From Nitrosopumilaceae archaeon (lineage in GTDB: Archaea > Thermoproteota > Nitrososphaeria > Nitrososphaerales > Nitrosopumilaceae), in assembly GCA_965207375.1 (NCBI GenBank), contig OZ242274.1, positions 1,248,001 to 1,312,000 on the forward strand: a DNA stretch of 64,000 bases, read 5' to 3'. The notes under the pieces were generated by a model. The model was not told where the DNA came from. It worked only from the letters and a program-made list of their open reading frames with translations, and searched no databases. This document shows, one piece after another, positions 4,242 through 37,286 of the stretch (position 1 is the first letter of the stretch; each line of letters starts with the position of its first letter). A program made the position numbers and the translations under genes.

Positions 4242-4973
4242 ATGAACGCAAAACAACGAACCGGAATTCTTGCAATATCTGTAATAGCTGCAATTATGAC
4301 TATAGGCAGTATTGGAGTTGCAGAATCAAGTGCAGTCAAGACGATAACCTATGAGGTCACAGTTACAAATATCACGCCAGGCCAACCAATAACTCCTCCG
4401 TTACTTGTAACGCATGCCAAAGATATTGGAATTTTCTCGGTAGGACATTTGGCAAGTGAACAGCTTGGACAACTTGCTGAAAATGGAAATGCCCAACCGC
4501 TAGTTCAAAGCATTACTGAGGCAGGAGCTTTTGATATTGTACAGGGCACTACACCACTAGTTCCAGCAAATGATCCGGGACAGACAGATCTGAATCATTC
4601 TGAGACATTTACCATTACGGCAAGTGGCCAGCAGAAATATCTTTCATTTGCAAGCATGTTAGTCTGTACAAATGACGGATTTGCAGGTATTGATAGTGTA
4701 AGATTGCCTTACTATAACGAAAAAACAGTTTATGCAAAAGGCTATGATGCAAGAACCGAGGTAAACACCGAAGATTTTGCTGATATGGTACCTCCATGTC
4801 AGGGCGCAATTGGAATAACATCAGACGATGAGGGTACAGGTACTAGCAATCCTGAAATTGCAGAAGATGGTGTAATTATTCCACACGTGGGAATCTTGGG
4901 CGGCAACGACCTTACATCTGCACATGCATGGAGTAATCCTGCAGTTAAAATCGATATTGTGCGTGTAGGGTAA
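4242..4973 (+). CDS. secreted spondin-N-domain protein
   Basis: Signal peptide; VTVTNITPGQPITP, LAENGN, SMLVCTNDGFAG, YDARTEVNTE are typical of prokaryotic spondin domains. Confidence 0.8.
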   Translation: MNAKQRTGILAISVIAAIMTIGSIGVAESSAVKTITYEVTVTNITPGQPITPPLLVTHAKDIGIFSVGHLASEQLGQLAENGNAQPLVQSITEAGAFDIVQGTTPLVPANDPGQTDLNHSETFTITASGQQKYLSFASMLVCTNDGFAGIDSVRLPYYNEKTVYAKGYDARTEVNTEDFADMVPPCQGAIGITSDDEGTGTSNPEIAEDGVIIPHVGILGGNDLTSAHAWSNPAVKIDIVRVG

Positions 4974-6047: not shown

Positions 6048-6700
6048 TTAATTTACAGCCTCTATTTTCTTCAAGGTGTCAGCTATTTGTTGCTAGAGTG
6101 GATTAGAATATTTTTGAGTATTGTTTTGGGCTTCAGCTACAGTCATAGGATTATCATGTTATATAATGCCAAATGCTGCCAAAACTCTATTCCATCTGTC
6201 AACGTGTTCTGCACCAAGATGCGTTTGTTCTGCCATTAGCCTTGCACCGTCTATTACTGCAGGATCAATTTCAGGTATTGGACTATCTGGTATTGGAACG
6301 CCAGATTTGATGCCACTGATGCCACCGTCACCGCCACTTTCAGTATCAGATATTATGACTGTCTGGCTAGTGATTCCGGTTAAACTATGTCCTGTACTTG
6401 GAAGTAACGTAATTGTGAGTGCCCCCGCCCTGATCCCCTGCTAATCACCGGAGATGCGAAAAGTGCAATCGTTGTCCATATACTTGTCGCATCGATTGTA
6501 AAAGTACCTATGGCCGAATCGGGAAAATAGGCGCCTTCTTGGGTAATGGAATATCTTGTATTGTGTCCCCATCTGTACTCGGGTTAGGACCAACATGAAT
6601 CTGTGGAGAAATACCGGCACCCTCAAGTATGGATGGTGGAAGATTAGTGTTGAGTTGTACTGCATACATTCTATTGTACGAAAAATAGATCTGTCTAGAT
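6048..6700 (-). pseudogene. pseudogene of a secreted Calx-beta-like protein carrying the HVDRWNRVLAAFG module (paralogue of 31741..33873)
   Basis: Minus frame reads ...GVPIPDSPIPEIDPAVIDGARLMAEQTHLGAEHVDRWNRVLAAFGII*HDNPMTVAEAQNNTQKYSNPL*QQIADTLKKIEAVN*; nonsense codons at 6159-6161 and 6093-6095; frameshifted Calx-beta-like region upstream; 5' boundary approximate. Confidence 0.85.
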
Positions 6701-22944: not shown

Positions 22945-24516
22945 ATGAAACTTGCTTCTAGTGCTATAATTTTGGCAACATTGCTTGTAACAAGTGCTGT
23001 ATTTGCAGCATCTCCTGTAGCATTTGCACTTCACAACGGTGACCACTCTGGCCATCCAACTATTGATAAAACCATACCACCACAGCTAAACCTTAATTCA
23101 AAATCACGTGAGCTGACAGTCACCTTTGATAGGGCAATTGTACAAGGCAACGTTGATCCTTCAGAAATAACAATATACGATAAAAGATATAGATCCAGCA
23201 TCTCTCTTGATAATGCCAAGGTAACTCATGACAGTGACAAAAAAATAACCATTACACTATCACAAAGTCAGGCAAACACCGTAAAGTCATTTGATACGAA
23301 CAAAGATTATGTTTCAGTAGAGGGTCCCGATGGTAAATTTACCTCTAAAATTGAGAATTCTGTGCCGTTTGTAGTCATGAAACGTGCAATTTGGGACGAT
23401 GAAACGTACGTATATGGCAAAACCACATATTTTTCACTCAAAATTGTAGATATCGTACCGCTACTCCCATCTGAGGATTCACAAAAACAAATTGCCGCAC
23501 TTGAGGCAAAAAATACAAAATTATCTAGCGATATACTTGACCTTCAAAACGAGATATCAACACTAGAATATCAGATACTCTTACTGTCTACAACACCTTC
23601 TACTATCCTTACAGAATACGCCGAATTACAAAGTAAGGTCAAAACTCTAGAGGCAGAAAAGATCACACTACAAAACAAAATTACAGCACTATCTACAGCA
23701 CCTAACACTCTTGCTACAGAAAATGCACAATTACAAAACAAAGTAACCACACTAGAGACACAAAACGCCAATCTGCAAAACAAAACCGCTACTCTAGAGG
23801 CAGAAAAGATCACACTACAAAACAAAATTACAGCACTATCTACAGCACCTAACACTCTTGCTACAGAAAATGCACAATTACAAAACAAAGTAACCACACT
23901 AGAGACACAAAACGCCAATCTGCAAAACAAAACCGCTACTCTAGAGGCAGAAAAGATCACACTACAAAACAAAATTACAGCACTATCTACAGCACCTAAC
24001 ACTCTTGCTACAGAAAATGCACAATTACAAAACAAAGTAACCACACTAGAGACACAAAACGCCAATCTGCAAAACAAAACCGCTACTCTAGAGGCAGAAA
24101 AATCTACATTACAGAGTCAGATAACTGCACTACAGAGTCAAGTAACTTCACTTCAGAGCAAAATCACAACACTAGAAACAGAAAACACCAACCTAAAAAA
24201 TAATGTAATAATACCTGTTGTAGAAGACCAGCAACAACCACAAAATACAACACAAAATATACCACAGCAACAACCTGAACCAATACCAACACCTGAAATA
24301 GATCCGACCTTAATTGAAGATGTAAAATACCTTGCATCACAAACCCATCATGGTAACCAACATGTAGATAGATGGAACAGAGTGCTTGCAGCATTTGGAG
24401 AAATAGAACATGACAATCCGATGACTGCAGCCGAAGCTGAGGCTAATACCAAAAAGTATTCTAGTCCACTCTGGCATCAGATAGCAGACATCCTGAAAAA
24501 ATTAGAGGCTACATAG
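22945..24516 (+). CDS. secreted protein: N-terminal beta-rich domain, coiled-coil stalk, C-terminal HVDRWNRVLAAFG module
   Basis: Signal peptide MKLASSAIILATLL..., heptad repeats, Q/P linker, C-terminal module shared with 31741..33873. Confidence 0.9.
   Translation: MKLASSAIILATLLVTSAVFAASPVAFALHNGDHSGHPTIDKTIPPQLNLNSKSRELTVTFDRAIVQGNVDPSEITIYDKRYRSSISLDNAKVTHDSDKKITITLSQSQANTVKSFDTNKDYVSVEGPDGKFTSKIENSVPFVVMKRAIWDDETYVYGKTTYFSLKIVDIVPLLPSEDSQKQIAALEAKNTKLSSDILDLQNEISTLEYQILLLSTTPSTILTEYAELQSKVKTLEAEKITLQNKITALSTAPNTLATENAQLQNKVTTLETQNANLQNKTATLEAEKITLQNKITALSTAPNTLATENAQLQNKVTTLETQNANLQNKTATLEAEKITLQNKITALSTAPNTLATENAQLQNKVTTLETQNANLQNKTATLEAEKSTLQSQITALQSQVTSLQSKITTLETENTNLKNNVIIPVVEDQQQPQNTTQNIPQQQPEPIPTPEIDPTLIEDVKYLASQTHHGNQHVDRWNRVLAAFGEIEHDNPMTAAEAEANTKKYSSPLWHQIADILKKLEAT
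23644..24101 (+). repeat. 147-bp exact coding tandem repeat x3 plus 17 bp
   Basis: Units start at 23644, 23791, 23938 and (partial) 24085; 49 aa = 7 heptads. Confidence 0.95.
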
Positions 24517-24732
24517 TCTTGATTATAGAGCAAAAAGCACATGTGTAATGAAAAAGTGCAGGAATTACCAGAAATCATCTGCAAAATTTAGATTGTCTTG
24601 ATTATGCCAATGTCTAAACTCTGAACAATTGTATGAAAAGACAGTTTGTATCAATCTGTGTTTTGTGTAGGTGCTATAATCGGATTTGGTAAGGATTAGG
24701 AAAAACCGTTATAGTTAGAGATAAAAAGCAAG

Positions 24733-25071
24733 ATGTCTGTTCTAAATTACATGTCAGAAGTATCAGAATTTAAAATACAGCAAATCATTGACAATGGTCA
24801 GGCAGTACAGATGAATCTCATCGAAAATGTAAACACAGAGCCAATTTCACAAAAACAGATGATTATGGAGTCAGTTGCAAAAAAACTGGATTCTGAAACT
24901 AGGGAACAAGTAACTCCACTGCTAGAAGCTATTTTGCAGGCACAGCCCACAGTCAAGGTAAAAAGCTACCAGCAAACGTCGATAAATGTGGCCATGCCAA
25001 AAAACCGATATGAACGAATGGGCAGACCACAGGTTGGTGCAATTGTCGACATACAGTTAAAATCACTCTAG
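24733..25071 (+). CDS. hypothetical protein
   Basis: 112-aa ORF (start may be 24751). Confidence 0.75.
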
Positions 25072-27090
25072 ATGGGATGTAATTTCTGATATTGATTTTA
25101 AGGGCAAAGAACAGCTAAAATTCTTACATACAAATGAAGTTGTTTGCAAGGGATCAAATTCCTTACCCTCAAAAAAGGCAATTGATTTGAGAGATTCTAG
25201 TTGCTTTGGGTTTTGAACTGAGACTAGAATCGCCTCTGGTATGTACTGTTTTGAAATTTCAAATGTTGTTTTGCCATCTGTATCTAGTATTGTGATTTCT
25301 GTTGGTTTTTGAAGATACAGGTAAATGGTATTGAGCATATATCCAAATCCAAATGGATTTTCTGCTGCCATCTGTGCCTGGGATCTGAGTATCTTCTCAG
25401 ATGTGCCAAGATAATTTTCATTTTGGGTCATATGGTATAGTCTTAGCAAGAGGTGTGAGGCAACTGAATTTCCTGAAGGTAGCGATAAATCGTAATTGTT
25501 TTTTGGACGAACTATCAAACGTTTCTGATTATCTGCAGTCATAAAGAAACTGTTACTTTGTTCATCCCAAAAGTGCTCCAACAGGTAATTGGCAAGCTCT
25601 TGTGCCTTGTTCAGATAAACTATGTCAGGACAGATTTCAAAAACATCAAGCAGGGAGCTAGCATAATACGCATAATCTTCTAGATATCCTGCGATTTTGG
25701 CATTGCCATTTTTGCAGGTACGCACAAGTGTTTTATCTTTGAATAAATTTTTCTCAATAAATGAAATACATCTTTTGGCAGCATCTAAATATCTAGAATC
25801 CCCAGTAACCCGATATCCTTTTGCAAATGCAGTAATCATCAACGCATTCCAGGAGGTCAAAATTTTGTCATCTAATCCAGGTGCAATGCGATGATTTCTT
25901 ACCTCTAGTAATTTTTGAGTGCAACGGTGCAGTAATTTTCGTATATCTTGTTCTTTTATGCCGCTTTGAAACGCCACAGTAGAAATATTTAGATTATTGC
26001 ACAGAATGGTATTGCCTTCCCAGTTGCCTCCATCAGTTACATCATAATACAGACAAAATGTTTCTGCATCATTTCCTAGGATTTGCTGTATTTCACTTTT
26101 CTTCCAGACGTAAAATTTTCCCTCTACGCCCTCTGAATCTGCATCCTGTGCAGAATAAAATCCTCCATCTGGACAGGTCATTTCACGTAAAACATAGTCT
26201 AATGTCTTTTGTAGTATTTCTAAATATACAGAGTCTTTGGTAATCTGATAGGCTTCTGCATAATTAATTGGAATCAGGGCATTGTCATAAAGCATTTTTT
26301 CAAAATGAGGAACCAGCCATCTTGCATCAGTGGAATATCTGTGAAATCCTCCTCCAATCTGATCAAATATTCCGCCACGTGCCATTTTGTTTAGAGTCTT
26401 TAATGCAAATTCTTGGAATTTGGAGATTCCAGATAATTTTGCATATTTGAACATAAAAGAAATGTTTGCAGCATTGGGAAATTTGGGAGCAGAGCCGAAT
26501 CCGCCATGAGTCGTATCGCCTAACTGTAGCAGGTTCATTGCTGCCTCATCTAAAATTGTTTTTTCAATGTCAGAGGTCTCTAGTTTTTCAGTACGGTCAA
26601 GATTCTGTATGAAATTTTCTGCAGACTGTTTTATGTCATTGGGTTTTTCCTTCCATGCCTGGGACAATTGCCCAAGTATGCTTCCAAATCCCGGTCTGCC
26701 ATATGTATCCAAAATTGGAAAGTATGTTCCTACATAAAACGGCTTTTGGTCTGGGGTCAAAAATACACTCAATGGCCAGCCTCCCTGACCTGTTGCAATT
26801 TGACATGCCTTTTGATAAATATCGTCAATATCTGGACGCTCTTCTCTGTCTACTTTGATGTTGATAAAATTTTCATTCATGACTTTGGCAATTTCCTCGT
26901 TTTCAAAGGATTCGTGAGCCATTACGTGACACCAGTGACACGAGCTATATCCGATGCTTAGGAAAATTGGTTTATTTTCATTTTTGGCCTTTTCAAGTAT
27001 ATCATCATTCCAAGAATGCCAATCTACTGGATTGTGGGCATGTTGTAAGAGGTATGGACTAGTTTCGTCAATAAGGTTGTTTTCTGCCAC
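25063..27090 (-). CDS. thioredoxin-domain/six-hairpin protein (YyaL/DUF255 family)
   Basis: [45 protein letters not shown]. Confidence 0.95.
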
Positions 27091-27439
27091 AAACTTTGTA
27101 AATTGTAATTGGTATTTGTATCTACGCTGTTTGGGTACAAGAAACTAAGTCTAATCTAGTTATGATACAGGCAAGACGAAGCTGCCTTTTTTGTATTTTC
27201 ATTTGATATAATTTGCAGTATCGCGCCACTTGATCTTGTAGATACAATATTTGAAATTATGTATAGTATGAGTTTTAATTGGACAGCCTTCAGAGACAGT
27301 CTGAGTTTATGATGTGTGGTATTGACTGTAAAAATTATGGATTTGGTATTTTTATGGATACAAAAATCTACATGTTTCAATATGACTTTTTAAAAAGTTT
27401 CAATAGAAATTATTTTGTTAAATGCGTTACATCTGGGTT

Positions 27440-27667
27440 TTAGATTCCCTCTCTTCCTTCCTCTAACTCGTAAACTCTGACATTAATTTTTGCCAGCAAT
27501 TTCATTTTGGATTTGTTTGCCTTTTTATCGTGACTGTAATCTTTTTTTTGTATTAGCTCCTCTAACCGTTTTAGCTGACTATAGTCAAGGGACTTTAAGC
27601 TTTGTTCACTGACAATTTTTAACAGAGTTACTCTTTCCATATCTTCTGAAGAGATCTTATCTGTCAT
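27440..27667 (-). CDS. hypothetical protein
   Basis: 75-aa charged helical ORF. Confidence 0.7.
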   Translation of the reverse strand: MTDKISSEDMERVTLLKIVSEQSLKSLDYSQLKRLEELIQKKDYSHDKKANKSKMKLLAKINVRVYELEEGREGI

Positions 27668-28226
27668 CTCAATTCCTGTTCCAATTTACATAACGTATCA
27701 GTTACAGGAAATGATTTTTCAAGTTTGTATGTTTTAAAATTTAGTTTTTGTTTTGTTTTGGAGCATATGTTTATAGGTGTAATGTATACTGTACAGAAAT
27801 TAATTTTTTGTATTGTATTTATTCTAAAACCCTGCATTGTACACAGTATTTTGTATTGTTTGTACTGTGTGATTATGATGTTCCATGCAGTCGTAATCTG
27901 AAATCTCAAGGTTTGTAAAATATCATAAAAAACTGTTGGCAGACTATTTTCCATTATACCTTTCATGATATGGTGTTTAACAAGTACATTTTAAACTTGA
28001 ACTGATAAGCTCCTGCTAGTTTTGACTGTGTAATTGTCAAATTGTATGACACAAAGATGGTTCAAGATTCTCTCTACCGTAGAGCCTTTTCTGACTGTTT
28101 GATTTTTGAATTTATATGAAAATTTCATGTGTATCTCTGCGATCTAGTATACGTCTTTACAAAACATCAAATAACTAGCGTAAAATCAGGGTTAATCTAA
28201 TATGTGCAAAAAAGCCAGCCATCATT

Positions 28227-29264
28227 ATGTCAGAAAAAATGAGAGCCATGGTTTTAGAAAAACTAGGGCCTATAGAATCAAAACCCTTAAAGCTATCAGA
28301 AATTGAAAAACACCAAATTAAAAGACCAAACGAAATTCTAATCAAAATTCAGGCATGCGGTGTGTGCCATTCGCAATTGCATGGAATAGAGGGGGATTGG
28401 AAGGAGTTAGGAATTCCCCCACAACTTCCAACTGTCCCAGGCCATGAGGTGGTAGGCACAGTTGTCGAGATAGGAAAGGACGTAACAAAATTCAAGCTAG
28501 GAGAACGCGCAGGCATCTCGCCACTGTTGGAGGCATGTCAAAAATGCAGTTACTGCCTAGAGGGAAAGGAAAATCTATGTGAGGACTCTGAGGTTTTAGG
28601 TGAGACTCTGAGGGGTGGATATTCTGAATATGTTACAGTATCTGAGGATTTTGCAGTAAAGGTACCTGATGCCATGAATCCTGAATATGCAGCACCACTT
28701 TTTTGTGCAGGTATCACTGCCTACAAGGCAGTAAAGGCTGCCGAGCCCGAACTAGGAAAGAAGGTAGGAATTTTTGGTATAGGTGGGGTAGGACACATGG
28801 CAGTACAATTTGCCAAGGTTGAAGGATTTGATATAACTGCCATTTCAAGAACACAAAAACATCTAGATATTGCAAAAAAATTAGGTGCAACCCATACAAT
28901 AGTGTATAATCAAAATCAAGATACGGTGCTGTCTGGACTAAAAAATACTGTAGGATTACTTGATGTGGCGATTGTTTTTGCACCCTCTGATCACGTAACT
29001 GATACTGCAATAAAATCTGTAAAGAAGGGAGGTCTGATAGTAATTGCAACAATTGGACAAATCAAGGGCTTTGTTGCATTTGAAGAAAAAACAATTCGAG
29101 GCACATTGATTGGATCAATACACGACATGAAACAGGTAATCAAAATCGCACAAGAATATCATCTTGAGGTAATATCTGAGACGTATCCGCTAGAGGAGGC
29201 AAATGAGGTCCTAGAAAAACTCAAAAACTCACAAATAGACGCAAGAGCCGTCCTTGTACCGTAG
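28227..29264 (+). CDS. zinc-dependent alcohol dehydrogenase (MDR family)
   Basis: CGVCHS, GHEVVG, structural Zn C..C..C.......C, GIGGVG. Confidence 0.95.
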   Translation: MSEKMRAMVLEKLGPIESKPLKLSEIEKHQIKRPNEILIKIQACGVCHSQLHGIEGDWKELGIPPQLPTVPGHEVVGTVVEIGKDVTKFKLGERAGISPLLEACQKCSYCLEGKENLCEDSEVLGETLRGGYSEYVTVSEDFAVKVPDAMNPEYAAPLFCAGITAYKAVKAAEPELGKKVGIFGIGGVGHMAVQFAKVEGFDITAISRTQKHLDIAKKLGATHTIVYNQNQDTVLSGLKNTVGLLDVAIVFAPSDHVTDTAIKSVKKGGLIVIATIGQIKGFVAFEEKTIRGTLIGSIHDMKQVIKIAQEYHLEVISETYPLEEANEVLEKLKNSQIDARAVLVP

Positions 29265-29273
29265 TGAAACATT

Positions 29274-29426
29274 ATGAACTGTCATAGATGTCATCATATG
29301 GATCGGGCTCATTTGGAATCTGATAAAAGCGATTCGTTAATGAAACTTGGACAGTGTCAGATTCCAGATTGTACCTGTAGACAATATGCTGACGGAATTC
29401 AAAAAATTGATGAGGATTTACTTTGA
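29274..29426 (+). CDS. 50-aa Cys/His-rich microprotein
   Basis: MNCHRCHHMDRAH...GQCQIPDCTCRQY...DEDLL; fills the gap between two co-directional genes. Confidence 0.75.
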   Translation: MNCHRCHHMDRAHLESDKSDSLMKLGQCQIPDCTCRQYADGIQKIDEDLL

Positions 29427-29455
29427 TTCATATGGAATAGGGTGGAAAAAATAAC

Positions 29456-29692
29456 ATGAAAAAGCATGCACCTGCACAGGAAATGAAAAAAGATCTTGAC
29501 GACCTGCTATCAAAAATCAATGCGTTGGAGGTAATAGCTGTAGATTCACACCAGAAAGGCACAGTAAAGGTACTACGGGCACTAACTGAGGGTCAAATTC
29601 ATGCAATCAATGAATTTGAGCATCTCAAAAAGGCAATTGATCTAGTGACTCTGCAACTATTTGATGTGCAAAAAAAGATCAATTCACTTTAA
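29456..29692 (+). CDS. hypothetical coiled-coil protein
   Basis: 78-aa helical ORF. Confidence 0.75.
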   Translation: MKKHAPAQEMKKDLDDLLSKINALEVIAVDSHQKGTVKVLRALTEGQIHAINEFEHLKKAIDLVTLQLFDVQKKINSL

Positions 29693-30166
29693 ACGGGTGT
29701 CACTAATTCCACAACTGGCACATTTGTAGAGGTTGCTTTTTTCAAGCTCTTTTTCTAGCGACATGCCTGCACCACAACATGCACATTTGATATCTGTTGC
29801 ATGTTTTTCAAAAGGTGTTTCAGAGGATGATTGTTCTGTGTCTTTACCGTTGCAGACAGGCCTGTATTTTGATATTATTTTCTCGACTATGTTTTGTCTA
29901 GACTGTGGGGATGAGTCAAACATGGGATATATTGCAACATGTAGATTCTTTTCGGTTCTAGCGTGACTCACCCAGCACTTGAATCTTGAATTCTTTGTGA
30001 AAAATCCTACATCATCGGACTTTGTACACTGATCCACATAGATCAATGAGAACTTTTCCCCATCTTTACCAAGTAATATGTATACTATCTCCTCCATGGG
30101 CGGACCCCATTCGTCAAGTTGGATGGGCCCCATGAATTCATAATGAAGGATTTGAATACTCAACAA
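29684..30166 (-). CDS. hypothetical protein with C-terminal zinc ribbon
   Basis: CACCG...CASCG at the C-terminus; N-terminal part loosely GIY-YIG-like. Confidence 0.75.
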   Translation of the reverse strand: MLSIQILHYEFMGPIQLDEWGPPMEEIVYILLGKDGEKFSLIYVDQCTKSDDVGFFTKNSRFKCWVSHARTEKNLHVAIYPMFDSSPQSRQNIVEKIISKYRPVCNGKDTEQSSSETPFEKHATDIKCACCGAGMSLEKELEKSNLYKCASCGISDTRLK

Positions 30167-30263
30167 CTAGTATTATTTAGTGTCAGTTTTACACCTTTCT
30201 GATATTTTCATCCTCTATTGCCACTTGAAAAGAATAAATGCGACATGCTTGGATGTTTGCTAA

Positions 30264-30518
30264 ATGGTAGAAAAAGATCCTCACAACTATAGATCAGTTG
30301 GATGGGCCATGATCACAGTTGCTGCCGGACTAGCAGGAATAGGTTTGATTGCACTTTTTATAGGGGGCGATGTGCTGTATTCGGACAACTTTCAGAGGGC
30401 AAAGACTGCAGAGTTTAATCACTGTAAAAGCATAAATTTTGAAAGTAACATATGTGACAAATATTTGGATCGAATCAATACCGAAATTTCTGACGTATTC
30501 GTTGACGACAGGGGCTAG
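30264..30518 (+). CDS. small membrane-anchored protein
   Basis: One TM helix and a Cys pair. Confidence 0.7.
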   Translation: MVEKDPHNYRSVGWAMITVAAGLAGIGLIALFIGGDVLYSDNFQRAKTAEFNHCKSINFESNICDKYLDRINTEISDVFVDDRG

Positions 30519-31183
30519 TAACCATTTGCAAAATCCTCCCACGAATTGAGATTCTTTGTCAGTTTATTCATGGCAAAAAATGCACCGCCTATAATTCCTG
30601 CCTGATAAAATGTATACAAAAATACACCTGCGTTTGTAGGATCGGATTTGGAAAAACTCAAGACCAGCATTGAAAAGAATGTAAACGTACCAACGCATGT
30701 AATCAAACGGTTCAAAAATCCTGCATTCATTCCTACGATTTTTTTGGTAGCAGCTGCCATCAGGGCAATGCTGGAAATTATAAGAAATGTCGCACCGCCA
30801 TTTGCAGTAACAAAGTCACTTATCCATGGCAAAAGACCGTCTCCTAAGATTGTCATTTCCGGCATGACGCTTCCTCCATTTAAGGCAAAGTTAACCGAAC
30901 TAAACAGGCCTCCTATAACGAAGAAAAACAAAAATATTTTCACTATAGAACGCTTAATCGGACTACGTGTTTCTGATGGTCTTATGGCCCGTTCTGTAAT
31001 TTTTATGCCATAAAGAAAGCCGACTGCCATGGCAGGTACAAACATAATATTTATCAAAATTGGAGATTCTTGGTTGATTTTGTCGATTTCAGGATGAAAT
31101 ATCAAAAACAACAATATTGCCATGGCAGCAGAAGCCACAAACAGTATCAAATTAAGATATGTAGGACGTTGCGAGTCTGACAT
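30515..31183 (-). CDS. multi-pass membrane protein
   Basis: About six hydrophobic segments; ATG 31183 preferred. Confidence 0.8.
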   Translation of the reverse strand: MSDSQRPTYLNLILFVASAAMAILLFLIFHPEIDKINQESPILINIMFVPAMAVGFLYGIKITERAIRPSETRSPIKRSIVKIFLFFFVIGGLFSSVNFALNGGSVMPEMTILGDGLLPWISDFVTANGGATFLIISSIALMAAATKKIVGMNAGFLNRLITCVGTFTFFSMLVLSFSKSDPTNAGVFLYTFYQAGIIGGAFFAMNKLTKNLNSWEDFANGY

Positions 31184-31297
31184 GTCTCGTTCCCAATTGT
31201 ACACAGTATATTGTCACAAAACAACGATTAAAGAAACAACAAAAAATCATTTATGTAAACAATTCAATTCTGTTTACCTTTTTAACTGCCAAATGCT

Positions 31298-31516
31298 ATG
31301 TTTTGTGTGAAAATAGCGCATATTCTAGTTGTGGGGGGTGGTTTTGTAGTGTTGTTTGGTTCAGTTTTTCACCTTCAAGGCCTCTCAATTGTAGGTCCGG
31401 AGGCCTCGTTTATGTACTCAAATCCAAACTGGGTAACGTACGGTTTTCAGATGATAGTTTTAGGTGTAGTAGCTATCTGCGCAGGATTGGCAATTTGGTT
31501 AAAAATCAGACGATAA
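31298..31516 (+). CDS. small two-TM membrane protein
   Basis: Two hydrophobic helices around GPEASFMYSNPNW. Confidence 0.7.
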   Translation: MFCVKIAHILVVGGGFVVLFGSVFHLQGLSIVGPEASFMYSNPNWVTYGFQMIVLGVVAICAGLAIWLKIRR

Positions 31517-31740
31517 TTTCACATAAACGAATATGCGGTAAAACATTTCATTATGTCTTCTAGGCTTTGTGTTTTATTCAAATTGTATATCTGGTCTTTT
31601 TGTATGTATAATTTACCATAGTGTATCGCCTTGGATCTTTAACTGAATTGAGTTTATGAAATGCCATGCATACATTGAATGTAAAAATCATAGATTTGAT
31701 ATTTTTGACATGTATTGTTTGTAAGACAGCAATGTTGTGA

Positions 31741-33873
31741 TTAATTTGCAGCCTCTAATTTCTTTAGGGTGTCAGCTATTTGTTGCCATAGTGGATTAGA
31801 ATCTTTTTGGGTATTGTTTTGGGCTTCTGCTGCAGTCATAGGATTATCATGCTGTATAATGCCAAATGCTGCCAAAACTCTATTCCATAAATCCACTTGT
31901 TCTTTTACAGCTTCAATTAAAGTTGCATTTATCGTGTATGTTGGTTCTGGTACTGGTTCTACTGTAGGTGTTGGCTCTACTGGTTCAACCTGTGGTGAAT
32001 CTTGAGCAACGGCTGAAGTTTGATTAACCTGTGGTACGTGTATTTCCTGTGGTATATTTTGTGTTGCATTTTGCTGTTGCTGCTGTTGCTGCTGTTGTTT
32101 GAGTTGTTCAATTGCAGCCTCACGCTCTTGTAAGATATTTGCAATCTTGACCCATAATGGACTAGAGTATTTCTTTGTATTTGCCTGAGCCTCTGCTGCA
32201 GTCATTGGATTGTCATGCTGTATCACTCCAAGTGCTGCAAGTGCTCTATTCCATCTGTCAACATGTTGGTGGCCGTGATGTACTTGACTTGCAAGGTACT
32301 TTATATCTTCAATTAGTTCTGGGTCAGCTGTAGGTATTGGTACATCTTCTGGTACAACTACCGGTATATCTTGTGCGATATTTGATGTGTGATTAATCTG
32401 TGGTACGTGTATTTCCTGTGGCTGTTGTTGTGGTGTACCTTGTTGCTTTGCCTTTTCATAACAAGTACCTAAAATGCAGAATTGTTCGTTTTGTGGCGGT
32501 ACTGGTTGTGTTTGGTTTTGTTGCGGTGTATTTTGTGTTGCATTTTGTGGCTGCTGCTGCTGCTGTGAGCCTGCTGCATCCCTTGCAGCCTCTAATTTCT
32601 TTAATTCTTCATATACCAAATTCCAAAATGGCACGTTACTATATTTTTCTACATTGGCTAGAGCCTCTTCTGCAGTCATTGGATTAGAGTGTTCTATTTC
32701 TCCAAATGCTGCCAAAACTCTATTCCATAAATCAACGTGTTCTGCACCAAGATGCGTTTGTGCTGCCATTATCTTTGCACCGTCTATTACTGTAGGATCA
32801 ATTTCAGGTATTGGACTATCTGGTATTGGTACGCCGGTTCTGATCATGTCAACGCCACCATCATCGTCCTGTACTAAGATTGTAAGACTGTGCCTAGAAC
32901 CTATGTTGTAATCGGAGCTGGGACGTAACGTGACTGTGATGCTACCATCAGCTTCATCTATGTTATCATTTATTGTAAAAATCGTAAATGTTGCGGGCTC
33001 GCTTGCCAATATTGTATGATCCCCTTCTGGCGAGTGTGAATCTAGATAATCGCCGATTTGGGTAATGGTGTAATGTACTGGTAGGTTGGTAAAACTAGAA
33101 GGTGTAATCCCAATTGCTATTGAAGAGCTTTGACCCTCTATTCTGTTTAATTGGGCTGAGAAAATTTGTACTGTTGGAACTTCTCTTCCAAGATGAGCCT
33201 CCCAATAGTGTTGACTACCATGTTTTGTGTGACTTGGTGTGCTTGGGTGTAGCCACTCATAGAGGTATGGGTTATCTATAGTGCGTTGTACTATCGGTGA
33301 AACCATGACTAGGAGTGATTCACCAGCTACAACATTTCCTAGTTTTGTATTATATGAGGCACTACCTGATGTGTCTCTTGCATTGATTGTTATCTTTTTG
33401 TAAGTAAAAGGAAGGAAGGTAGGGTTGGTTCCCGAGTCCCTGTCGGCCGTGTTACCGTAGGTTGCAAATGTTTCAGTGTCACTGCTAGTGCCCCCGAGGG
33501 TGGCAGTATTGGAATTATTACATCTGCTTGTTGCACTTGGCTTGGCACTGTTAGATAAATTACAGTCATCAATTTGGACATAAAATTCTATTGTTCCATT
33601 TGCAGGCTCATCTAGAGTTACAGTTACTGTGAGGGGTTGGCCGTGAGTTGGATTGTTTAGTGTGACTGTTGCTCTGTTTATCTCCTTATCATCTGTATAA
33701 AATTGATCAGACATTTTATTGACTGGCTCAGGTATGGGGTCACAATGAGCCACTTTGGGTGTTCTTTCTGAGTAATAGCAAAATCCATGATCGGAGAATG
33801 CCTCTGGTGTCTGGAAACCAAGTAATAATGATATAGAAAATGCCACAATTATTGTATAATGTAATGTTTTCAC
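31741..33873 (-). CDS. secreted protein with Calx-beta-like domains and three HVDxWNRVLAAFG modules
   Basis: Signal peptide; TINDNIDEADGSITVTL..YNIG...ILVQDDD Calx-beta-like pattern; three module copies separated by poly-Q/P linkers. Confidence 0.9.
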   Translation of the reverse strand: MKTLHYTIIVAFSISLLLGFQTPEAFSDHGFCYYSERTPKVAHCDPIPEPVNKMSDQFYTDDKEINRATVTLNNPTHGQPLTVTVTLDEPANGTIEFYVQIDDCNLSNSAKPSATSRCNNSNTATLGGTSSDTETFATYGNTADRDSGTNPTFLPFTYKKITINARDTSGSASYNTKLGNVVAGESLLVMVSPIVQRTIDNPYLYEWLHPSTPSHTKHGSQHYWEAHLGREVPTVQIFSAQLNRIEGQSSSIAIGITPSSFTNLPVHYTITQIGDYLDSHSPEGDHTILASEPATFTIFTINDNIDEADGSITVTLRPSSDYNIGSRHSLTILVQDDDGGVDMIRTGVPIPDSPIPEIDPTVIDGAKIMAAQTHLGAEHVDLWNRVLAAFGEIEHSNPMTAEEALANVEKYSNVPFWNLVYEELKKLEAARDAAGSQQQQQPQNATQNTPQQNQTQPVPPQNEQFCILGTCYEKAKQQGTPQQQPQEIHVPQINHTSNIAQDIPVVVPEDVPIPTADPELIEDIKYLASQVHHGHQHVDRWNRALAALGVIQHDNPMTAAEAQANTKKYSSPLWVKIANILQEREAAIEQLKQQQQQQQQQNATQNIPQEIHVPQVNQTSAVAQDSPQVEPVEPTPTVEPVPEPTYTINATLIEAVKEQVDLWNRVLAAFGIIQHDNPMTAAEAQNNTQKDSNPLWQQIADTLKKLEAAN

Positions 33874-33882
33874 AAAATTAAC

Positions 33883-33892
33883 GGGGGGGGGG
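33883..33892 (-). promoter_or_regulatory. G10/C10 homopolymer just upstream of the 31741..33873 start codon
   Basis: Ten G on the + strand, lying between a TTTTTAGAA TATA-like box (minus strand) and the GTG start. Confidence 0.6.
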
Positions 33893-34131
33893 TTCTAAAA
33901 ATGTTGCGATTTGAATGGCATGTGTAAGATATTTGGGTTTAGCGTGTGGTAAAATTGTACGAGTCGTGTCTAATTGGATACCCCTCATTTTTGACATTTA
34001 ATTAGGACACACATCAACATGACTGCAAATCCTGATTTGAATCTATTTTACATCTTGAATCCGTGCAGCAATTGACCATTAGAATTTACCATACAAAAAT
34101 CAAATAGATGTGTTCTTTTTGCAAAATCACT

Positions 34132-35340
34132 TTAAAATCCACAAGACAGCGGCATTGAAGGCTTTATTATTTCCCGCATCACAATGGTGGCAAATGAACC
34201 ACGTGACAATGTAAAAGATACGATATTATCACAAGCATCAAAGTCTGTCACGCTGATTGCCGAGTTTCTAAATCCTCCCTCTCCGCTTGCCTCCTGAATT
34301 TCTTTTATGTAAAAATCCTTTGGAGTAATTTCCTGCTCTTTTAAAATTTTTGAAATGTAAAAATTAAACCGTGTTTTTTTGTAATACGAATAGCCTACTA
34401 TTGGAATTGCAAGTCTTTGATCTAGGCCATCTATGTGTTTGCCTAAAATACCTGCACCGTCATAACATACATCGCCATCCTGTGACTCAAAAAGCTGCTC
34501 ACCATAGTCAAAGGCTTTGCTAATTGTTAGATTAAACAAATATGATTGATACGCCTGAACATAAAATCTGCGCATCTGTACAGGCAACGCCCTGATTGCA
34601 CGCAACTCGTCTCCGTGTTCTATTAGCTCAGCAATTACTGTGCGTTCTAGGTCCATCTGCGGTGGAATCGATTCATAGACTCTTTTGTAATTTGAAGGAT
34701 CAGACATTTCTGTGCGAATCTTTGTATTCTCATCAGAGTCATATTTTGATACATAGGACAACAGATAATGTATGGCATCAGAGTATCGTTTCTGTACTAG
34801 TGCCTTGCCTATCAGATGTGTTACGGGCCTAGATGATCCAAACCTTTGATATCCGTAAAAATTTAAAATTCTTTGATACTCAAAGTCTTCAAATCCTGCG
34901 TCATTATCTGATATTTTAATTGTAAATCTGTTTCCAATCATGTTTTTTTTGGACAGTGGTTTTTTTGTATATCCTAGACGCTTTAAGCTATATTTGCCAG
35001 ATTCGAATTTTTCAATTCCCTTTGATCTGCTAGTCGAATACACAAATTGTGTTGTTACTGCATTTGAATCCTTTAGTCCCAAAGAAAAAAGACGCAATCC
35101 TGTTTTTTTAAATATGCTAGACAGGGCATGGTTTGTATCAATGCGGGTTTTTCTTAGAGAATACACTGGATATCCTTTTGTTTCTTTTATTGCAGATTCT
35201 GACTTTGGTGAGAGTACCTCCTCAACTAGAAAATCCTTTGGTCTTTTACGAATTCTACCGCCACATCCTGCAAAGCCTGTACTGTAACAAAGGATTCCAA
35301 CATCAGAATCAATCTCAGATACGGTCATGTGACTAGCCAA
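34132..35340 (-). CDS. truD: tRNA pseudouridine(13) synthase
   Basis: DFLVEE, GLKDSNAVTTQ catalytic Asp, GNRFTI, NFYGYQRFG, FTLSRGSFAT. Confidence 0.95.
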   Translation of the reverse strand: MASHMTVSEIDSDVGILCYSTGFAGCGGRIRKRPKDFLVEEVLSPKSESAIKETKGYPVYSLRKTRIDTNHALSSIFKKTGLRLFSLGLKDSNAVTTQFVYSTSRSKGIEKFESGKYSLKRLGYTKKPLSKKNMIGNRFTIKISDNDAGFEDFEYQRILNFYGYQRFGSSRPVTHLIGKALVQKRYSDAIHYLLSYVSKYDSDENTKIRTEMSDPSNYKRVYESIPPQMDLERTVIAELIEHGDELRAIRALPVQMRRFYVQAYQSYLFNLTISKAFDYGEQLFESQDGDVCYDGAGILGKHIDGLDQRLAIPIVGYSYYKKTRFNFYISKILKEQEITPKDFYIKEIQEASGEGGFRNSAISVTDFDACDNIVSFTLSRGSFATIVMREIIKPSMPLSCGF

Positions 35341-36910
35341 TAACTAGGGTAAAGAATTCAGAGACTGCAATGTCTGCTGTCTGAGCCCCCAGTAATACCT
35401 TGTAGGTGCCAGGAGACAGTGATTCAGAGACTGAAACCCTGAATGGAATTGTCTTGGTTTGCCCCTCTGAAAGATGTATCGTTGAAACATCTGATTCTAT
35501 CAAAATTAAATCAGCTGCAACGCTGTTAGAAATAACATCAAAGGTGCCCTCTTTATTTGCAGTAACTTTTAGTGTGACAAAAGTGCTTTCTTCATAAAAC
35601 ACCTTCTCAGAATCTATAGCAACGTCCATTGTAGGTGTAATTGATGTATCTACGACACCTATATTGTTGGCAGCCCACTCTGTAAACCAAATCTTGTCAT
35701 CTACTATGGTAAAATCAAATGATTGGGCAATACCGCAATTGGTAGCCAAAACACAGTCTGCCCATGTGGGATTTTTTGTAGGTATTGTATATTCTACAAG
35801 TTTTTGAGTCTGCGGATCAAATGTAGCTATGCGATTTGCAGTCTGCTCGTTGAACACTATTTGCCCGTCAGGTGCCAATCCCATCCAGTATGGTCTTGAG
35901 AGTGGAGTGGTTTTTATCAGTCCTGTCTGATTTCCATATGCAAATTCTGGTACGGGAGAAGTTATGTATCGTGTAAATACCTCAGTTGTAGGATCAAAAC
36001 TGTAAAAGTGCGATGTGGCAGTATCTGCCATCCATACGGTATTAAAATTATCTAATATGATGCCATTTATTGCAACAGCATGTGGCGGTAATCTAAAGGC
36101 ATCAACATATTTTGCAAATTCTATATCCTCTGGACTTTGAGAGTATGCCAATATGTATTGGTCTTGTGCCAATTTGACAAGTGCGCCTTCTCCCTCTGGA
36201 GTCCAGTTGGTATACCAGATGTTTGATTCTGCATCTTGGGCAAACCCTGCAGTTGCAGAACCATCAAGCGGCGATGGAATGATAACAGGTGGCTGATCAG
36301 ATCCGCTTGCATCTAAAATTACAAGTTTGTTGCCGATAAAATCATTGACAATGATTTGAGCACCTACAACGCTTAGTCTTTGCGGTAATGCGTCACCTTG
36401 GGAGGGGAAATTAAATCGTTGATATTGTTCATCGGCAATTGAAAATTGCCATATAGAGTCATGTGCCTCATCTGAATACCAGACAGAATCATCAGAGGAA
36501 TAATCCATGCCCCAAACCATGGAACGTGCACCCTCAGGCCATGCCTGATTTTCAAACTCCCTAAATGCCCTTGTATTTGGATCAAACTTTGCCACATTGC
36601 CTGTGTTTGTTTGTATAAACCAAATATTGCCCTGAGAATCTGAGGTAATGGCAAGTGGCTGGGTACACTCTGTAGGAATTGAATATTCGGTCACATAATG
36701 ATTATACCCTGCAATGCCGTCTCCACAAAACTGTGCCCTCTGCTGATCTGGAAAATTCTCTGCAGGTGTTCCTGTTTTGGTGGACTCCATTGATCCGTTC
36801 TCAGGCGCAATGCCTGGAATTGCAATAACGACACCAGATGTTACCATTATACCTCCTAAAAATAAAAAAGCCAAAATTCCTTTGGTACGTTTTTTCACAA
36901 AATTGGTCAT
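35333..36910 (-). CDS. membrane-anchored Vgb-lyase-like beta-propeller protein
   Basis: Repeated D..GNIWF/WFTE blades, N-terminal TM, C-terminal Ig-like domain. Confidence 0.82.
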   Translation of the reverse strand: MTNFVKKRTKGILAFLFLGGIMVTSGVVIAIPGIAPENGSMESTKTGTPAENFPDQQRAQFCGDGIAGYNHYVTEYSIPTECTQPLAITSDSQGNIWFIQTNTGNVAKFDPNTRAFREFENQAWPEGARSMVWGMDYSSDDSVWYSDEAHDSIWQFSIADEQYQRFNFPSQGDALPQRLSVVGAQIIVNDFIGNKLVILDASGSDQPPVIIPSPLDGSATAGFAQDAESNIWYTNWTPEGEGALVKLAQDQYILAYSQSPEDIEFAKYVDAFRLPPHAVAINGIILDNFNTVWMADTATSHFYSFDPTTEVFTRYITSPVPEFAYGNQTGLIKTTPLSRPYWMGLAPDGQIVFNEQTANRIATFDPQTQKLVEYTIPTKNPTWADCVLATNCGIAQSFDFTIVDDKIWFTEWAANNIGVVDTSITPTMDVAIDSEKVFYEESTFVTLKVTANKEGTFDVISNSVAADLILIESDVSTIHLSEGQTKTIPFRVSVSESLSPGTYKVLLGAQTADIAVSEFFTLVIG

Positions 36911-36929
36911 TTTGTGTTGTTAATATCTC

Positions 36930-37286
36930 TTATAGAAGCTTTAGTTTGCCTGTTATCTTGTCAATTAAATTTTCAGGTGCAGGTCCTACTGAGATGCAAG
37001 TTATTGTACCTGGTGCAATTTGTGTGCGTCCTGCATCTGCAACCTCAGACCATGGAAGGCCCAGATCAATTGCCCCATGCTTGATGTCTTGCAGGTCTTT
37101 AATACCTGAAACTTTGAGAACCACCTTTTGCTGACCTGTGCGCTGCCATGCATCAAACCAATCAGGATGGGATTTTCTTACGTGCTCTGCACCCAAAACG
37201 CATGCATGACCTGTCTGGGCTGCAATCTTTCCTTTACCCATGCCCAAGTCGACTCTAACTATGACTACCTGCTTGATCTCATCCAT
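36930..37286 (-). CDS. pth2: peptidyl-tRNA hydrolase Pth2
   Basis: MGKGKIAAQTGHA, DAGRTQI, VGP. Confidence 0.95.
   Translation of the reverse strand: MDEIKQVVIVRVDLGMGKGKIAAQTGHACVLGAEHVRKSHPDWFDAWQRTGQQKVVLKVSGIKDLQDIKHGAIDLGLPWSEVADAGRTQIAPGTITCISVGPAPENLIDKITGKLKLL

Follow-up and report, generated by a model that had tools for sequence, protein, structure and literature searches.

The module and its genes in the window

We analysed a window of 64,000 nucleotides from a Nitrosopumilaceae archaeon (GCA_965207375.1, contig OZ242274.1, positions 1,248,001 to 1,312,000), in which two genes for predicted exported proteins and one gene remnant carry a common C-terminal module of about 70 amino acids (aa). 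There are five copies, one in 22945..24516, three in 31741..33873 and one near 6048, exactly where the original prediction, made from the letters of the window, had put them with a length of about 60 aa. A profile built from 100 modules scores 44-104 bits on these copies and had zero matches in 20 residue-shuffles of the six window frames. The features of the three loci, in which export is predicted from hydropathy, are the following.

22945..24516, forward strand: exported 523-aa protein with a hydrophobic N-terminus, an N-terminal domain, a coiled-coil stalk, a Q/P linker and one module; without a poly-C tract
23644..24113, forward strand: coiled-coil stalk repeat, a tandem 147-bp (49-aa) unit present 3.2 times, 99% identical, with generic coiled-coil Pfam matches
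24292..24510, forward strand: complete module with four helices (H5-16, H22-34, H46-55, H60-72)
31741..33873, reverse strand: exported 710-aa protein of class A, with a hydrophobic N-terminus, a Cys-containing beta domain, a Calx-beta domain and three modules with Q/P linkers
33184..33792, reverse strand: beta-rich N-terminal domain with conserved Cys, modelled with mixed confidence
32860..33183, reverse strand: domain of predicted Calx-beta fold (aa ~231-338 of the 710-aa protein), the most variable region between paralogues
32590..32808, reverse strand: module 1, a profile match
32116..32334, reverse strand: module 2, a profile match
31750..31968, reverse strand: module 3, shortened by about 10 residues that include the H-G-x-x-H loop with the conserved His and Arg
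33883..33892, reverse strand: C10 tract, 9 nucleotides upstream of the GTG start and after a T-rich TATA-like box; a candidate slipped-strand switch with a putative promoter role
6048..6479, reverse strand: 5'-truncated relic with the end of a Calx-beta domain and one module (6057-6275), with one TAA and one TAG in frame

The two intact proteins end alike and begin differently, as had been predicted: one has a coiled-coil stalk and the other a Calx-beta fold, which emerged from the structure search. In the latter, the model of aa ~231-338 superposes on NCX1 CBD1 with Z 12.0 and a root-mean-square deviation of 2.6 Å over 104 residues, and the six top VIA rows are all Calx-beta domains (Z 10.6-12.0). 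The predicted structure thus identifies this region as a Calx-beta sandwich, although the 710-aa protein did not match PF03160 (Calx-beta) in the Pfam search. The N-terminal domain of the 523-aa protein is 31% identical to P0043, a protein of the same layout with a shorter stalk. Hydropathy gives neither window protein a C-terminal hydrophobic segment, in line with the predicted lack of a C-terminal transmembrane helix. The shortened last module of the 710-aa protein, without its His/Arg loop, is common to 9/9 class-A paralogues; its retention in this form may mean that its role differs from that of the complete modules.

The relic near 6048 had been described as a silent pseudogene. Its module does contain two in-frame stops, but what remains is a 5'-truncated piece, not a whole gene, and it aligns only to aa 310-429 of an intact paralogue. 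A database protein of 143 aa (P0042) is 95% identical to it and has an open reading frame. At 1 kb from the relic, 4242..4973 (forward strand) encodes a protein of 243 aa that matches Spondin_N (PF06468, E 4.5e-8), a domain of animal extracellular matrices.

The unique parts of 31741..33873 are identical in short-read contigs from two runs (possibly of the source sample, and so not independent), so this gene is not an assembly artefact. An apparent one-base gap at 33883 in these contigs is accounted for by a C9 paralogue. A further run from another study (X4) contains DNA of a related strain or species, whose flanks in window 29500-37000 are about 96-98% alike, and also many module-like contigs.

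An undescribed four-helix domain

AlphaFold2 applied to 26 copies predicts a bundle of four helices with high confidence (predicted local distance difference test, pLDDT, 96.5; predicted template modelling score, pTM, 0.86). The module had been called unannotated, and the libraries agree: no match was found in Pfam-A for 26 modules, in NCBIfam for 100 modules or in PHROGs, and the ESM Atlas gave no usable match. The best sequence match in the PDB (E 0.028 over 28 positions) was rejected. Fold searches (Foldseek against PDB and viral structures, VIA wide) reached at best Z 5.0, with unrelated helical proteins, a result that neither shows nor excludes a new fold. The profile search, modelling and Foldseek search that had been suggested as checks thus returned no strong match to a characterised family, and the opposing case named with them, a module common in cytoplasmic proteins of free-living taxa, did not appear in the databases searched. 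We found no description of the module in the literature, where subscription papers and bioRxiv supplements were largely outside coverage. The module is an undescribed domain family that resembles appended binding modules, and what sets it apart is that it crosses the boundary between archaea and bacteria within one habitat, with dozens of copies in each genome.

Across phyla, the mean column identity is 42%. Among 100 diverse modules, the residues kept are Leu32 (100), Trp28 and Trp61 (99 each), Arg30 (97), His24 and Arg27 (94 each); Val25, Gly36 and the block Met44-Thr45-x-x-Glu48-Ala49 are also kept. We take the T-x-x-E motif to be the usual helix capping box, which leaves His24, Arg27 and Arg30 as the candidate functional face. 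The other histidines are kept far less often (His20 in 42/100, His40 in 26/100, His19 in 25/100), and His24 itself is absent from 14/52 copies of the archaeal genome. The proposed metal site of several histidines therefore fares poorly: a single His is conserved, where such a site would take at least two conserved His or Cys ligands. A site formed by His and Glu, or between modules, is still conceivable from these alignments. Cys occurs at both ends in 28/391 modules, as a disulfide would need.

A multigene family with variable heads

The contig that holds the window (C1; 2.16 Mb, 38% GC) encodes an archaeal amoA, i.e., it belongs to an ammonia-oxidising archaeon, and two close homologues are labelled Thaumarchaeota. 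Searching the whole assembly with a profile of the five window copies, we found 54 modules, spread over 23 stop-to-stop fragments of C1, and none on contigs C2-C4 (2.1 Mb, eukaryote-like); a second round added none. These 23 loci comprise 17 open reading frames (ORFs) of 526-800 codons, two broken long genes and four short relics, and the 17 full-length ORFs make up 1.7% of C1. An N-terminal hydrophobic stretch is present in 17/17 of them and a C-terminal one in 0/17, as judged by hydropathy alone, no signal-peptide predictor being used.

The module is joined to at least five unrelated heads: nine genes are of class A, three of class B and three of class C, one has Ig repeats and one the coiled coil (the gene at 22945..24516). 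Within class A, the modules are identical between paralogues at 33-38/40 residues in the best-kept blocks, whereas in the Calx-beta region (aa 241-320) the best paralogue is identical at just 13/40 and 17/40. The best-matching class-A paralogue also switches along the gene, as recombination would give. Module shuffling, as had been suspected, is supported. The linkers vary as well, with poly-Gln runs of up to ~90 residues and differing numbers of QDPVPT or VEPTPI repeats (C1:2035935-2038301 and other paralogues).

Two further observations concern the assembly. At C1:1341225, 1355322, 1407365, 1444064 and 1974998 lie five tRNA-like copies, degenerate and related to one another, that have a GAA anticodon and a common upstream TATA-like region. 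Three of them are found downstream of module genes or relics, at a distance of a few hundred bases, and may have arisen by joint duplication. Contigs C2, C3 and C4 (2.14 Mb) have only 5-12% of their length coding in long ORFs, carry transposon-like ORFs and microsatellites, and share no protein with C1. For these two reasons, low coding and no shared protein, we ruled out that the 4.3-Mb assembly represents two archaea; C2-C4 are probably co-binned eukaryotic DNA, probably of the host, that doubles the apparent genome size (stated contamination, 0.06).

Poly-C tracts at the starts of the genes

The original prediction had pointed to a homopolymer near one start codon, the C10 tract at 33883-33892. 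Such tracts turn out to be a property of the family: C1 has 19 C/G runs of at least 9, and 16 of them, 9-12 long, are found at the 5' ends of module genes, each on the coding strand, and are likely switches. They occur in 15/17 full-length ORFs and in one broken gene, the gene at 22945 being without one; with only three sequence contexts among them, the 16 do not count as independent events. In class A and one class-B gene, the tract follows a T-rich box and precedes the start codon, a spacer position from which it could shift the transcription start. In class C, it lies between two ATGs. In two paralogues, it is within the signal-peptide codons, as C11 in frame at C1:1663227 and as C10 out of frame at C1:1705307. 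The three long tracts away from module genes (C1:1480665, 1795394 and 1916464) are possible further switches. Short-read contigs break at the poly-C tract, and homopolymer length is error-prone in assemblies.

Poly-C/G tracts form contingency loci in surface genes of Neisseria and Campylobacter. The archaeal genes resemble these in their long C runs at gene starts, in run lengths that vary among paralogues and in one in-frame/out-of-frame pair, i.e., they have long 5' runs whose length differences would alter frame or promoter spacing. They differ in their archaeal host, in the position of the tract, which in most paralogues precedes the start codon instead of lying within the reading frame, and in being known here from sequence. 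On these grounds, we think the module genes are probably phase-variable through the poly-C tract. C/G runs of at least 9 are also frequent in five other genomes of the family, whether or not they have the module (15, 28, 52, 75 and 138, the 52 being in a genome without the module), and contingency loci may be general in some archaea of this family. No paper listed by a literature search on such tracts in Thaumarchaeota covers them; an earlier survey of 5' homopolymers of archaeal genes dealt with A/T runs (PMC2831843).

Carriers and partner domains in other genomes

At the level of 50%-identity clusters, 538 match the module at E up to 0.001 and 261 at E up to 1e-10; the protein counts below rest on the best 150 of the 538 clusters and 47 further matches. 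The module had been thought always C-terminal. This is true of the archaeal copies, but outside this genome it ends the protein in only 74/172 carriers and lies within the first 70 aa in 50/172 (some of them fragments), and it is also internal, e.g., interspersed between Calx-beta repeats or within autotransporter passengers. Two modules per protein are the commonest arrangement (113/184), and 43/229 neighbouring modules are less than 10 aa apart, most pairs being parted by longer linkers or whole domains. The partners in 32 scanned carriers include Calx-beta, FN3, RTX/serralysin, subtilase, VWA, LRR, cadherin and Ig domains, 11/32 having no Pfam match; the proteases fused to the module are of families S8 and M10. 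In 14/172 carriers, the protein ends in a region homologous to an autotransporter barrel called in the Atlas (score 0.96), and 178-951 aa lie between the last module and this barrel. A C-terminal hydrophobic segment is present in 0/174 proteins longer than 200 aa, and only one protein has a sorting-like motif within its 50 C-terminal residues.

A tie to giant Calx-beta proteins of sponge bacteria, named in the original prediction, is supported by the Calx-beta partners and by carriers in metagenome-assembled genomes (MAGs) of Ircinia sponges (see below). Module-bearing open frames of 7,000-15,000 codons occur in two genomes (G426 and G428), and one of 24,501 codons in a third (G540).

Spread among phyla and possible transfer

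We scanned 185,579 species genomes with a degenerate motif, confirmed the hits with the profile and counted the genomes by hand. This gave at least 117 loci, 115 of them confirmed, from at least 69 genomes, all titled MAG; two loci (L055 and L067) failed the profile and were dropped, as was the one weak locus of a scan of JGI metagenomes with the window module. The carriers among the matches listed belong to Actinomycetota, Chloroflexota, Pseudomonadota, Acidobacteriota, Binatota, Gemmatimonadota and Nitrospirota, and to one Nitrosopumilaceae archaeon. The five bacterial carriers in which copies were counted have 23, 37, 26, 23 and 40 of them. All 12 MAGs whose source was checked, these being the ones with labels that fit the Ircinia study PMC9531527, are sponge bins in its supplementary file 6. 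Another three MAGs bear the names Poriferisocius or Poriferisodalis, and six that of Aldehydirespirator(aceae), whose lineages include symbiotic as well as free-living ones (PMC11706023).

The module is rare among relatives of its carriers. A single query found it in 0/60 relatives of our archaeon. It was found in 4/400 genomes of the family of our archaeon and 0/4 of its genus, in 2/400 of its order, with 0/261 outside the family, and in 7/301 genomes of the order of G426; with stricter cut-offs, it was found in 12/201 and 8/101 genomes of two bacterial families. All of these are samples of genomes, without given habitats, in which a limited number of candidates was scored per genome. In a quick, unrooted tree of 76 columns, the copies of our genome fall in a group of 16 rows (support 96) together with other archaeal copies, two alphaproteobacterial copies and one from a gemmatimonad, and other archaeal copies fall elsewhere. 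On the module tree, phylum labels need to change 23 times; the minimum is 6, and shuffling gives a mean of 42.7. Since the spread is patchy and the phylum labels are interleaved, the sequences suggest repeated transfer between phyla and across bacteria and archaea. As to the vehicle, a pattern search found no module in IMG/VR and a single query found none in the PLSDB plasmids.

What the module may bind

We give about even chances to the module attaching exported proteins to a ligand of the host. It would be a small, independently folding four-helix binding domain, usually paired for avidity, by which varied exported proteins (Ig or Calx-beta stalks, proteases, VWA and LRR proteins) are held to a ligand of the shared habitat. 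The ligand would most likely be a polymeric or glycan component of the sponge's matrix or cells, and we suggest as candidates collagen/spongin, or glycans like those on the aggregation factor, which is itself built on Calx-beta arms (PMC11670116). Exported enzymes and adhesins would thereby be retained in a water-flushed tissue; unanchored exported proteases are noted for another ammonia-oxidising archaeon of sponges (PMC6790972). The module would have passed between phyla and between bacteria and archaea, and in our archaeon it would have expanded into the 17 full-length genes, in which the tether end is conserved while the head varies and recombines; poly-C would let most of these genes be switched. 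A sponge ligand would explain together the spread, the free position in the protein, the tandem pairs and the lack of membrane anchors.

The original prediction had left open whether the module is a surface anchor, like SLH or dockerin modules, or a tag for the host matrix; the second part fits better and the first less so. In the first, exported proteins would be kept on the cell by a module that attaches to the envelope of the producer itself (S-layer, glycan or wall polymer). The lack of a C-terminal membrane anchor in the 174 proteins, the near absence of sorting-like motifs, the many different proteins per genome that carry the module and the terminal modules conserved beneath variable heads in the archaeal paralogues would all suit this. 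Yet the carriers span four envelope types (archaeal, actinobacterial, chloroflexal and Gram-negative) and, where checked, one habitat, so a single ligand would be needed in all four that is nevertheless missing from most close relatives. The module also sits in passengers that are already barrel-anchored, in 14 proteins far from the membrane, as well as between Calx-beta repeats. A self-anchor is therefore unlikely.

Just as unlikely is dockerin-like binding, of one module to another or to a partner domain of some microbe, that would mesh symbionts and exported proteins. Carriers with such a language across the habitat could do without a common envelope, and the prevalence of paired modules, including those less than 10 aa apart, would suit it; however, the longer linkers or whole domains within most pairs speak against it, and no cognate partner domain was seen, none having been specifically searched for. 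Also quite unlikely in our judgement is a role in signalling or capture, in which the module would engage a sponge receptor (e.g., to dampen phagocytosis, as has been proposed for eukaryote-like proteins) or a small ligand or metal through His24, Arg27, Arg30 and Glu48. These four residues are kept in 87-97/100 modules, and the module is found alongside LRR, FN3, cadherin and Calx-beta domains, which are reported as enriched in sponge symbionts; against this, just one His is conserved, and 14/52 copies of our own genome are without it. Nor is there a eukaryotic look-alike in Pfam, PDB, the Atlas, the fold searches or the 2.1 Mb of eukaryote-like contigs, no sponge proteome having been searched. 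An inert helical spacer without a ligand, spread by recombination among repeat-rich surface genes, would agree with the 6/23 broken or partial loci of our genome and with the lack of a fold homologue of known function, but is very unlikely given the surface-type polar residues conserved across phyla and the dozens of copies kept per genome.

Several points weigh against a host ligand all the same. The archaeal family, with its conserved C-terminal modules, has the pattern of a self-anchor, and the two invariant Trp may be core residues. The habitat is documented for just 12/69 MAGs, with three others bearing Poriferi- names, and the sponge link of our own archaeal genome is indirect. The spread is seen from the best 150/538 clusters and at least 117 scan loci. 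An N-terminal hydrophobic stretch is absent from 77/174 proteins (many of them fragments or with doubtful starts), and one protein with a module of our genome's subtype (P0045; 598 aa, module at 127-194) looks non-exported, has no Pfam match and no relative in viral contigs.

The attachment of exported proteins to a host ligand could be part of something wider: a residence tag of the whole community, a single fold passed among archaea and at least seven bacterial phyla, by which a sponge ligand is bound and microbes are retained or tolerated, with a phase-variable family in our archaeon. We hold this tentatively and consider it rather doubtful. The fastening of exported proteins to something in the sponge would itself open a direct route to learning how sponges keep a dense, specific community of unrelated microbes while they filter and eat others, a question approached so far via known eukaryote-like domains. 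As a well-folding domain of 70 aa that is present at 23-54 copies in a genome, in archaea and bacteria living together, and that is rare among their relatives, the module would be simple to produce as a probe. Its sequence also marks the sponge-symbiont lifestyle, and in the archaeon its genes are clear candidates for phase variation.

Comparison with known systems

Known appended modules share some properties with the one described here. SLH domains (PF00395) and choline-binding repeats are small, repeated, terminal, non-covalent wall anchors of exported proteins, and our module is likewise a small, repeated, terminal helical unit on many proteins without membrane anchors. It differs from SLH in having no sequence match to it in the Pfam (up to E 10) and NCBIfam searches and no fold match among the rows listed, in spanning archaea, monoderms and diderms, and in being also internal and present in barrel-anchored proteins. 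Dockerins, which pair with cohesins, are domains of ~70 aa appended by linkers to varied exported proteins, and the module matches them in size and attachment; unlike them, its consensus has no duplicated Ca-binding Asp/Asn loops, it has no Pfam match and no cohesin occurs among the 32 scanned carriers. Carbohydrate- and collagen-binding modules are appended to secreted enzymes, and the free position, tandem copies, conserved Trp/His/Arg and fusion to proteases recall them, whereas our module is all-helical and unmatched.

The last comparison is with the eukaryote-like proteins (ANK, LRR, FN3, cadherin, Calx-beta and GPP34) enriched in sponge symbionts of several phyla (PMC11706023 and PMC9531527). 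These are Pfam families that also occur in free-living cells and eukaryotes, whereas the module is in no library searched and not among the surveyed families. The module nevertheless occurs with them in the same polypeptides, and its carriers, like theirs, span several phyla.

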